DNA from: Escherichia coli
GTDB lineage: Bacteria > Pseudomonadota > Gammaproteobacteria > Enterobacterales > Enterobacteriaceae
Length of the DNA: 64,000 nt
NCBI RefSeq assembly: GCF_030013595.1
Contig: NZ_CP122768.1
Reading direction: 5' to 3' (one strand)
Position numbers and translations under genes: made by a program
The notes under the pieces: generated by a model
What the model was told of the DNA's origin: nothing
The model's database searches: none
Seen by the model: the letters and a program-made list of their open reading frames with translations, nothing else
Shown: one piece after another, positions 30,375-34,763 of the stretch
Position numbering within the stretch: position 1 is the first letter of the stretch
Layout: every line of letters starts with the position of its first letter

Positions 30375-32015
30375 TCACACCGTAGCGAAACTAACTGGTT
30401 TACCAACTCCGCGAGGTTCTGCCGACACAGAATGTTTGTTCAGACGGAATACGTCCACCGCCTCAGTTAATCGTGCAGCCTGTTCTTCAAGGGACACCGC
30501 CGCCGCTGAGGCCTCTTCTACCAGAGAAGCATTCTGTTGCGTCACCTTATCCATTTCAGAAATCGCCTGGCTAACCTGAGTTATGCCTCTACTTTGTTCA
30601 TCCGAGGCGGCGGCGATTTCCTGCATGATATGTGTGACACTCGCGACGGCATCAACAATAGTGCTCATGGTTTTCCCTGCCGTTGCCACCTCATCCGACC
30701 CCAGGTCAATTAACCTGACTGATTCACTGATCAAGCCTTCAATCTCTTTCGCCGCCTGAGCGCTGCGGCTTGCGAGTGTCCGTACTTCGCTGGCGACAAC
30801 GGCAAATCCACGCCCTTGCTCACCCGCTCGCGCGGCTTCAACGGCAGCATTCAGTGCCAGAATATTCGTCTGGAAAGCAATACTGTTGATGACGGCGGTG
30901 ATCTCAGAAATTTTCTTCGAACTCGTGGAGATAGCGCCCATCGTTTTTACTACACCGGAAACCGTCTGCCCGCCATCGCTGGCTTTAATAGAAGCCTCTT
31001 GCGCCAGTTTGCTGGCATGATGCGCGTTATCCGCATTCTGTTTCACCGTCGCAGTAAGTTGCTCCATGCTGGCGGCAGTTTGTTCGATAGCCGCCGCTTG
31101 TTCTTCGGTGCGAGATGACAGGTCCGCATTGCCAGCTGAAATTTCGCTGGTGCCACGATAAATCTCTTCCGCACCCTGTCGAACAGTCCCTACTGTCATC
31201 CCCAGTGAATGCTGCATTTGCTGTAAATGACGACTTAAGCGACCGATTTCATTACGACCCGCCGGTTCATCATTCATCGTCAGATCGCCACTGGCGATTT
31301 TTTCAATCCGTTGTGCGGCATGTTGCAGTGGACGAATGACGATCCGACGTAGCACTATAAATGTTATCAGCGTCATGACCAGGGCAAGCACAAACGCGCC
31401 AATCATGAACATCCCACCCAGGCGGGTGCGCTGATGGGCCAGTTCCGCCAGTTGGTTGGCTCTGGCGCTACGTATCTTAACGGCTTTGCTCAAAATATCG
31501 GTATAAGCATTATCCAGCGGTCGGATCTGCTCACTTTCATGATTGATAATCGCTTCAAACATGCCATTTTTGGCATATTTCAACATCGGTTGCATACCCG
31601 TGATATAAGCCTGGAAGCGTTGATTTAATTCAGTGTCGAGGGCTTCATCAGCAGGTGTTTTCACCGACCGATTCTGATAAGCACGATAACCTTGCTGCGA
31701 CTGTTTAATCTCCGATTCGGCTTGCGCAATATTTCGCTTCATTGCTTCCAATTCCGCAATACGACTCGCAGCACCGGCCTGAATCATATTGATCCGGGCT
31801 GAACGCAAAAAATCTGAACTGTTCGCTAACCCGGTCCGAATCTCAATCTCCGCAGTAACATCCCGCTGATCGCGATCGGCCTGCCAAAGGAAATAGCCGG
31901 CCAGGGCTGAACTTAATGCGAATAGAACTAAGATACCGCCAAGAATGCAGGCAAATAACGGAACCAGCCTGATGTGATGCAAAAAACCTAATCGCTGTGA
32001 GGGAGTTGTATTCAT
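30375..32015 (-). CDS. trg: Methyl-accepting chemotaxis protein III (ribose/galactose sensor), 546 aa
   Basis: ORF track; MCP signalling domain. Confidence 0.9.
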
Positions 32016-32355
32016 TACCGTTGTCTCTCGTCCAGGTTTACTCCTGATAGAAAGTCATCGGCACTTGACGGTAATTACTTATGACCAAAAACCTCTTTGC
32101 GTCACATTTTTACAACAATTATGGCAGAGAAAATTAATGCTATTGGAATGAAGAGAGTAACGAATGGCTAAACTGGCTAACCCGAATGACGAAAAATTCT
32201 GGAAAACAGCACGCAATTTCGTCAGGTGATTATTTTCGTCCCTAAGGAAACCACATAGGATGCTCACGGGTGCCTGAGACTTTCTGTTTTCAGGCTAACC
32301 GGGAATCAGAAAGACGAAGGCCCCGACCGATATTTCTATCAACCGAGGCCAACGA

Positions 32356-32563
<208 letters not shown>

Positions 32564-32634
32564 GGGCAAGCGCGGGGATTTTCCCCGCGCATCTGACTAG
32601 CAGATTCATTTTCTCATGGCACCCCTTTTACACT

Positions 32635-32787
32635 TCAGTTAGTGCATGTTTTTTTCGATGCACTAATAGAACCATCATTACAGACAAATTTGCCGCCTGC
32701 CGTACAGTGTGAGATCCCCCCTTTCGAACCAGAACAGGGTTTGCGCCCGGCATCGGCAAAAAAGGAAACAAGCGCTCCTATAACCAA
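32635..32787 (-). pseudogene. ydcA: ydcA-like small Cys-rich protein ORF with disrupted 5' end
   Basis: Minus frame encodes ..[43 protein letters not shown]; the only ATG (at ~32798) is in another frame and hits a stop after 6 codons. Confidence 0.3.
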
Positions 32788-33042
32788 GATGTTTTCATAT
32801 AACCTCCATGGTTTATCGAATCTTATGTTCGATTTGAACGTTATACGCTGGTTTATTTTGATACCGTTGATGAGATCAAAGATCGGGTGAATTGATTAAA
32901 GATAAGCCAGATGGACGTATGGATAAGGATTATGGTTTTATTTGTCATACAAATAAATATAATAGGCGCTTCCGATGTAGACCCGTATTCTTCGCCTGTA
33001 CCACGGGTCGGTTTTAGTACAGGCGTTTTCTTTAAATATCCT

Positions 33043-33573
33043 TCAGGAACGTTTACGCGGCATCATGCGTAGAAGTGTGTTGTCCTTCCAGAAATAGTGG
33101 TGTGCCAGTGCAGCCGCAGCGTGCAACCCGATGACAAAATATCCCAGATTCGCCAGCATTTCATGCCACGACTTTAAGCTATCAACCCGTTCGAAATTGG
33201 CCTCTGATGCATAAGGCATCGTCAAACCAAACGCAAACCACGGGTTGCCTCGGTTATACATCATCACCAAACCAATCACTGGCAGCGCAATAAACAGGAG
33301 ATAAATCACCAAATGTCCCAAATGCGCCAGTCCCGTCATCATCGGTTTTGGCTTAGGTATAATCGGCGGGGTTGGGTATTTCAGCCTTAACAAAAGACGA
33401 ACGACCATCAGCACGAGAATTGATATGCCACAGGAAACATGAATCATGTTGATGAGTGGCCGATCGCTACGTGGGAAGAAACCCCGAAACTCCATTGCGC
33501 AATACGCTGCGATAACCAGCATAAAGACCAGCCAGTGAATGCTGATTTGTAACCTTGAGTATTTATTTCCCAT
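33043..33573 (-). CDS. cybB: Cytochrome b561, 176 aa
   Basis: Start MGNKYSRLQISIHW.. inside tracked ORF 33043..33609. Confidence 0.85.
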   Translation of the reverse strand: MGNKYSRLQISIHWLVFMLVIAAYCAMEFRGFFPRSDRPLINMIHVSCGISILVLMVVRLLLRLKYPTPPIIPKPKPMMTGLAHLGHLVIYLLFIALPVIGLVMMYNRGNPWFAFGLTMPYASEANFERVDSLKSWHEMLANLGYFVIGLHAAAALAHHYFWKDNTLLRMMPRKRS

Positions 33574-33761: not shown

Positions 33762-34763
33762 ATGAGTAAAGTTGGTATTAACGGTTTTGGTCGTATCGGT
33801 CGACTGGTGTTGCGTCGATTACTTGAAGTCAAAAGCAACATAGACATTGTCGCTATTAATGATCTCACTTCCCCAAAAATTCTCGCCTACCTGCTGAAAC
33901 ATGATTCAAACTACGGACCATTCCCCTGGAGCGTTGATTTTACGGAAGATTCACTTATCGTTGATGGAAAAAGTATCGCGGTTTACGCCGAAAAAGAGGC
34001 TAAAAATATTCCATGGAAAGCGAAAGGCGCAGAAATCATTGTCGAATGTACTGGCTTTTATACCTCCGCCGATAAATCGCAGGCGCACCTTGATGCTGGT
34101 GCGAAGAAGGTGTTGATTTCCGCCCCTGCCGGTGAAATGAAAACCATCGTTTATAACGTCAATGACGACACACTGGATGGCAACGACACCATTGTTTCCG
34201 TGGCGTCATGCACCACTAATTGTCTTGCACCGATGGCCAAAGCCTTGCACGACAGTTTCGGAATAGAAGTCGGCACGATGACGACCATTCATGCCTATAC
34301 CGGCACTCAGTCACTGGTGGATGGCCCGCGTGGTAAAGATTTACGTGCTTCACGCGCAGCGGCAGAAAATATCATTCCCCACACTACGGGGGCGGCAAAA
34401 GCCATTGGTCTGGTGATCCCGGAACTGAGCGGCAAACTGAAAGGTCATGCGCAACGCGTACCCGTGAAAACAGGTTCGGTGACTGAACTGGTGTCTATTC
34501 TTGGAAAAAAAGTGACTGCCGAAGAGGTGAACAACGCGCTTAAAAAGGCGACAAACAATAATGAGTCATTTGGTTATACCGATGAAGAAATAGTCTCTTC
34601 CGATATCATTGGCAGCCATTTCGGTTCGGTGTTTGATGCCACGCAAACGGAAATTACCGCCGTGGGCGATTTACAGCTGGTGAAAACGGTCGCCTGGTAC
34701 GATAACGAATATGGCTTCGTCACACAGCTCATTCGCACCCTCGAAAAATTCGCTAAACTCTGA
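33762..34763 (+). CDS. gapC: Glyceraldehyde-3-phosphate dehydrogenase C, intact 333 aa
   Basis: ORF track; NAD-binding [10 protein letters not shown] and active site [10 protein letters not shown]. Confidence 0.85.

Follow-up and report, generated by a model that had tools for sequence, protein, structure and literature searches.

The 64,000-nucleotide stretch of DNA that we analyzed, hereafter the window, carries ydcA between cybB and rydC on one side and yncP, hokB, and trg on the other. The gene order, gapC-cybB-rydC-ydcA-yncP-hokB-trg, is that of Escherichia coli K-12 and places ydcA at the orthologous position; the K-12 order, aldA-gapC-cybB-rydC-ydcA-yncP-hokB-trg, runs reversed in the window, and ydcA is consequently found on the minus strand (32798-32635). 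Downstream of ydcA, at a distance of 25 nt, lies yncP (22 codons, 32541-32609, minus strand), which was located using the K-12 annotation (b4774) and matching genomes, and which overlaps, in antisense, the 3' end of hokB (32414-32563, plus strand) in the sokB/mokB/hokB toxin-antitoxin locus. Rfam's "sok" model, RF01794, gives a match of 109.7 bits at 32268-32419 on the plus strand, that is, the hokB/mokB strand, while sokB as annotated in K-12 falls on the opposite one (minus strand, ~32310-32366); with its 157 positions, RF01794 seems to span the hok leader region and not just the ~57-nt antisense RNA. The last neighbor on this side is trg (30375-32015, minus strand). On the other side, the rydC sRNA gene (32969-33032, plus strand; Rfam RF00505, 92.5 bits) is divergent from ydcA, and the intergenic region that the two share (32799-32968) is unaltered, columns 1-109 of the upstream alignment being invariant. 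A promoter scan of 32500-33100 found no sigma-70 consensus site. As for gapC (33762-34763, plus strand), it encodes a type I glyceraldehyde-3-phosphate dehydrogenase of 333 aa and is an intact ORF both in the window and in matching genomes, whereas the K-12 MG1655 annotation lists it as a pseudogene (b4493).

The sequence-only reading had matched the 45 C-terminal residues encoded at this locus to YdcA, a 57-aa protein with a signal sequence and a predicted periplasmic location (PMC11340327). This identification is borne out, since 44 of these 45 residues are identical in K-12 YdcA (the exception is Y17F), and a 476-base region finds its match at the syntenic ydcA locus in 5,415 of 5,426 complete E. 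coli genomes, which rules out a chance resemblance. The K-12 gene (b1419, NP_415936.1; NF007462/PRK10040; PF27300) has the same locus, neighbors, promoter region, Shine-Dalgarno (SD) sequence, and ATG. Alignment with it, which had been suggested as a check, gives a clean 10-bp gap in what is otherwise YdcA sequence. Compared with K-12, the window thus lacks ten bases, in codons 3-6, with loss of the N-terminal MKKLALI, and it displays four signal-peptide substitutions (F9V, M10I, T12A, and Y17F) that are common to the nearest intact alleles. The evident parent haplotype is the allele found in strain 746 and others (WP_001595708.1), which differs only by the 10-bp deletion: over 311 columns, the gap is the sole difference and all 301 shared bases are identical, including the 100 bases upstream that hold the ribosome-binding site.

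In the alignment with K-12, strain 746, and MMC-J-0066, the ten bases are absent directly 3' of ATGAAAA, that is, ATGAAAA[AACTGGCACT]CATCTTGG with the absent bases in single brackets, and the deletion junction falls at 32791-32792 on the minus strand. Inspection of the alignment revealed no microhomology at the ends of the deletion. Since 10 is not a multiple of three, the ancestral ATG is out of frame with the rest of ydcA, and the locus, from ancestral ATG to stop, now lies in two reading frames. The only ATG (32798-32796), 4 nt after an intact GGAGG ribosome-binding site (32807-32803), opens a six-codon ORF (32798-32778) that encodes MKTSWL and terminates prematurely at TAG (32780-32778), in agreement with the stop after six codons that the sequence-only reading had noted. 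The other frame stays open from upstream of this ATG as far as a TGA at 32637-32635, and its first conventional start, a TTG, gives a 50-aa ORF (32787-32635). This remnant encodes residues 8-57 of YdcA with no further change, 50/50 residues being identical to the closest intact allele. It comprises what is left of the signal-peptide coding region (32790-32749), with putative starts at ATC 32790 and TTG 32787 and the A-D-A cleavage motif still in place, followed by the 37-residue mature domain and the stop codon (32748-32635), which are unaltered with respect to both strain 746 and K-12 (37/37 residues in the latter). The description "Cys-rich" that had been given to this ORF corresponds to the four cysteines of its mature part; these four conserved residues and 14/14 invariant positions of the family, which follow the pattern P-C-x-G-x-K-G-G...H-C...F-x-C-x-D-G...S...C, are kept in the window's frame.

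A homologue search retrieved YdcA-family members from Escherichia, Citrobacter, Yersinia, Hafnia, Acinetobacter, and Actinobacillus, and an exhaustive profile search returned 330 representative clusters (E <= 0.001). In an alignment of 41 sequences, all members show the same architecture, which consists of a Met, a Lys or Arg within two or three residues of it, a hydrophobic run, an A-x-A motif, and then a near-invariant domain, (R/K)xPCSGxKGGISHC...FVCNDGSxSxSKKxC. An AlphaFold model of YdcA computed from this alignment (mean pLDDT 78) predicts a signal-peptide helix and a small β-hairpin domain, and some members of the family carry two or three YdcA domains in tandem. Among 146 family representatives, the domain starts at a median residue of 26, and it starts before residue 18 in just six, which look like truncated gene calls. 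Of the 110 representatives whose presequence has a normal length, 100 combine a Lys or Arg among their first eight residues with an uncharged run of at least 10. While the presequence of intact YdcA has two Lys and a core of 14 residues, that of the remnant is 13 (from TTG) or 14 (from ATC) residues long, with no Lys or Arg and an uncharged core of 9-10, and it does not qualify as a signal peptide defined by a basic n-region, a core of at least 10 residues, A-x-A, and a canonical start. The only SD, which is the one site with an anti-SD duplex (-10 kcal/mol), is separated from the ATG by 4 nt, as against 12 nt for the ATC and 15 nt for the TTG.

The deletion allele is real but rare, and it is lineage-specific. 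Only 3 of the 5,426 complete genomes match the 476-base region without a gap, namely 2012C-4221, HCP5S3_I2, and LCP30S3_I5, the other matches listed spanning 486 bases, and a 90-base probe across the junction detects the same three genomes. More than 5,400 complete genomes have intact alleles, which begin with MKK(L/I/F)ALIL. The allele has two independent sources, since 2012C-4221 is a CDC strain from the USA and the two others were isolated from pig feces in the UK. Its RefSeq protein (WP_064226499.1) is found on 122 NCBI contigs, compared with 485 for the protein of the parent allele; for that of the K-12 allele, the number is at least 1,000. Over 22 kb, the window and the two pig isolates show 100% identity, while its 22000-44000 portion shows 99.2% identity to 2012C-4221, with 172 SNPs and no indels. 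Of these SNPs, ~18 are inside a ~10-kb low-divergence block (29-39 kb) that includes ydcA, several of them clustering at the 5' end of trg (31638-31905). Such a mosaic divergence is typical of recombination blocks, and the shared block points to a single inherited event, consistent with one inherited or recombined haplotype. We also considered decay of the remnant as evidence for relaxed selection, and its freedom from further mutations as evidence against a pseudogene, and rejected both as uninformative, because the shared haplotype diverges by just ~0.1-0.2%, which corresponds to ~0.25 substitutions, so that no change is expected in 166 bases.

Although the allele is already in public databases, it is labeled there as a CDS. 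In 3/3 genomes that carry it, RefSeq lists a 156-nt CDS, annotated not as a pseudogene but as a "hypothetical protein" or "YdcA family protein" of 51 aa, which starts at the ATC at position 32790 of the window, 12 nt from the GGAGG core. RefSeq keeps the remnant as a CDS because its score remains barely above the cut-off of the NCBIfam model NF007462: the 50-aa version scores a borderline 119.7 bits against a cut-off of 118, while the intact parent allele scores 139.8 bits. A Pfam scan of the intact and truncated proteins returned no match in a copy of the database older than PF27300, the family listed for YdcA homologues. The 50-aa version starting at TTG is absent from a collection of 15 billion proteins, and gene callers other than PGAP therefore did not call it. 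The RefSeq CDS is an annotation rescue. An intact ORF with this N terminus, the finding that would speak against a disrupted 5' end, exists in this lineage only nominally, in the shape of that 51-aa CDS. As for the two possibilities entertained by the sequence-only reading, the frameshift pseudogene is supported by the 10-bp deletion, while the ATC CDS is no evidence for a working variant start. The CDS label hides what is likely a loss of function.

We conclude, with a probability of about 0.85, that the window carries a lineage-specific frameshift allele of ydcA that amounts to a pseudogene. One deletion of 10 bp has taken out codons 3-6 (AACTGGCACT), and ribosomes loading at the unaltered GGAGG/ATG would make the hexapeptide MKTSWL and then terminate, passing both alternative starts in the wrong frame. 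The frame of the mature domain has been left without an ATG, without a properly spaced ribosome-binding site, and without the first seven residues (MKKLALI) of the Sec signal peptide, which include both n-region lysines and one third of the hydrophobic core. Little or no precursor would be made, and any that was made would be poorly exported. YdcA needs Sec export to reach the periplasm, the only compartment in which its four cysteines would be oxidized by the Dsb system. Mature YdcA would therefore be absent or at a very low level; judging from the sequence, production and export of the secreted 37-residue peptide have very probably ceased, and the allele is best read as a frameshift pseudogene, a weak hypomorph at most. 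If yncP is co-transcribed with ydcA, the ~150 nt left untranslated upstream of it could, purely by inference, cause Rho-dependent polarity. This would be an ordinary lineage-specific loss-of-function lesion in the gene of a small, poorly characterized periplasmic protein, and it would matter little.

The foremost alternative is that TTG 32787 or ATC 32790 acts as a functional variant start, with a short uncharged signal peptide, making the allele a hypomorph and not a null. The open frame does retain the signal-peptide remnant and the full mature domain, it clears the NF007462 cut-off and is a CDS in RefSeq, more than 100 assemblies retain the allele, and a hydrophobic core of nine residues sometimes still targets proteins to Sec. 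Moreover, the end of the leader ORF and the TTG overlap, the latter being located 7 nt upstream of the hexapeptide stop, so that reinitiation is conceivable. However, neither start has an SD at a working distance, TTG is a weak start codon in E. coli and ATC a very weak one, and the strong upstream ATG and SD would drive ribosomes through the TTG in a different frame. The scarcity of family representatives in which the domain starts this early, apparently all truncated calls, and the failure of non-PGAP callers to report the 50-aa ORF also argue against it. Taking these points together, we consider a working variant start unlikely. A particular form of it would be a low-output allele created by the deletion and coupled to the leader ORF, in which translation of MKTSWL is followed by reinitiation at TTG 32787 and by export of a 50-residue precursor, its uncharged 13-residue signal peptide being cleaved off at A-D-A. 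The lineage would thereby retain the mature YdcA peptide at a lower dose, which strikes us as improbable.

Two other explanations are much less credible. In one, ydcA would really be intact and the gap an artifact of sequencing or assembly. Small indels are common assembly errors, and other ydcA variants in the databases resemble homopolymer errors at a run of seven A; the loss of 10 bp of non-repetitive sequence is no homopolymer error, though, and the identical junction was recovered in three complete genomes from two laboratories in two countries, with the derived protein on the 122 contigs mentioned above. This reproducibility in independent laboratories virtually rules out an assembly error. 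The remaining proposal, a programmed -1 ribosomal frameshift in the first codons, could restore a near-normal signal peptide (~M-K-N-I-L-V-I-G), since the -1 frame is open from the ATG and there is a run of four A at the start. Yet the sequence concerned, G-AAA-ACA in ATG-AAA-ACA-TCT, is no slippery heptamer of the X-XXY-YYZ type, neither a stimulatory structure nor an internal SD can be seen by inspection, and a run of four A is much too short for transcriptional slippage. In addition, the arrangement is not a conserved one, as it stems from a deletion that arose recently in a rare lineage, and we regard recoding as highly implausible. A frameshift pseudogene is thus the reading that we retain.

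A second N-terminal frameshift allele of ydcA is found in E. coli and E. ruysiae (P0007; MFVGMLVSF..., GCA_012296465.1). As in the window, codons 4-5 are disrupted, and here too a 50-aa ORF runs from a TTG, which annotators still call. It differs in that the lesion is a 1-bp deletion in a more divergent Escherichia background, and it is represented on five contigs. This independent frameshift suggests that ydcA is dispensable and has been repeatedly lost. Near the 3' end of the gene, there is a run of seven A (32643-32649 on the minus strand, ...TCGAAAAAAACATGC...), and some YdcA variants in the databases end in ...SKKHALTEV (P0037, 181 contigs) or ...SKKNMH (P0011 and P0013). These ends correspond to +1/-1 shifts at the A7 run, which remove the last conserved Cys, and they could reflect either real length variation or homopolymer errors of long-read sequencing.

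As for the role of intact ydcA, the literature yielded a single phenotype. Deletion of the gene in E. coli W leads to sensitivity to 300 mM 3-hydroxypropionate, which is removed by deletion of yieP, and a YieP site detected by ChIP-exo led to the selection of ydcA and rydC as candidate target operons (PMC7642389). Earlier work, as cited in that paper, reports YdcI-dependent induction of ydcA at pH 5. Strains with the deletion allele would represent natural ydcA-defective backgrounds that could be compared with their intact relatives for the 3-hydroxypropionate phenotype.

The YdcA-family profile matches one protein in the PDB, Dis2 (Lpg0823) of Legionella pneumophila (7MUC/7MUD, chain AN), a component of the outer-membrane cap in Dot/Icm, a type IV secretion system (T4SS). 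The E value is 2e-5 when the signal peptide is included and 3e-3 when the mature domain is used alone, and Dis2 contains two copies of the motif. When the AF2 model of YdcA was compared with the PDB using Foldseek, no match was significant by itself, and the top one was again Dis2 (E 0.5-0.9), with 38-39% identity and an rmsd of 1.7-2.6 Å over 33-34 columns. Both proteins have a signal peptide and a small disulfide-pinned domain with the pattern C-x3-GGI-x2-C ... G-x2-VCN-[DN]-G-x2-S. However, Dis2 is composed of two lobes with five disulfides, whereas YdcA is a single-lobe protein with four Cys and lacks a T4SS context. According to a 2025 study, Dis2 is specific to Legionellales and without obvious homologues in organisms with prototypical T4SSs (PMC12716638), and two Dot/Icm papers describe it as lacking significant structural similarity in the PDB and obvious homologues outside Legionellales; YdcA is mentioned in none of these. 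On the strength of the profile match and the model, intact YdcA probably resembles one lobe of Dis2, a likeness that is of more general interest than the pseudogene and that bears on the intact protein, not on the verdict reached for the allele.
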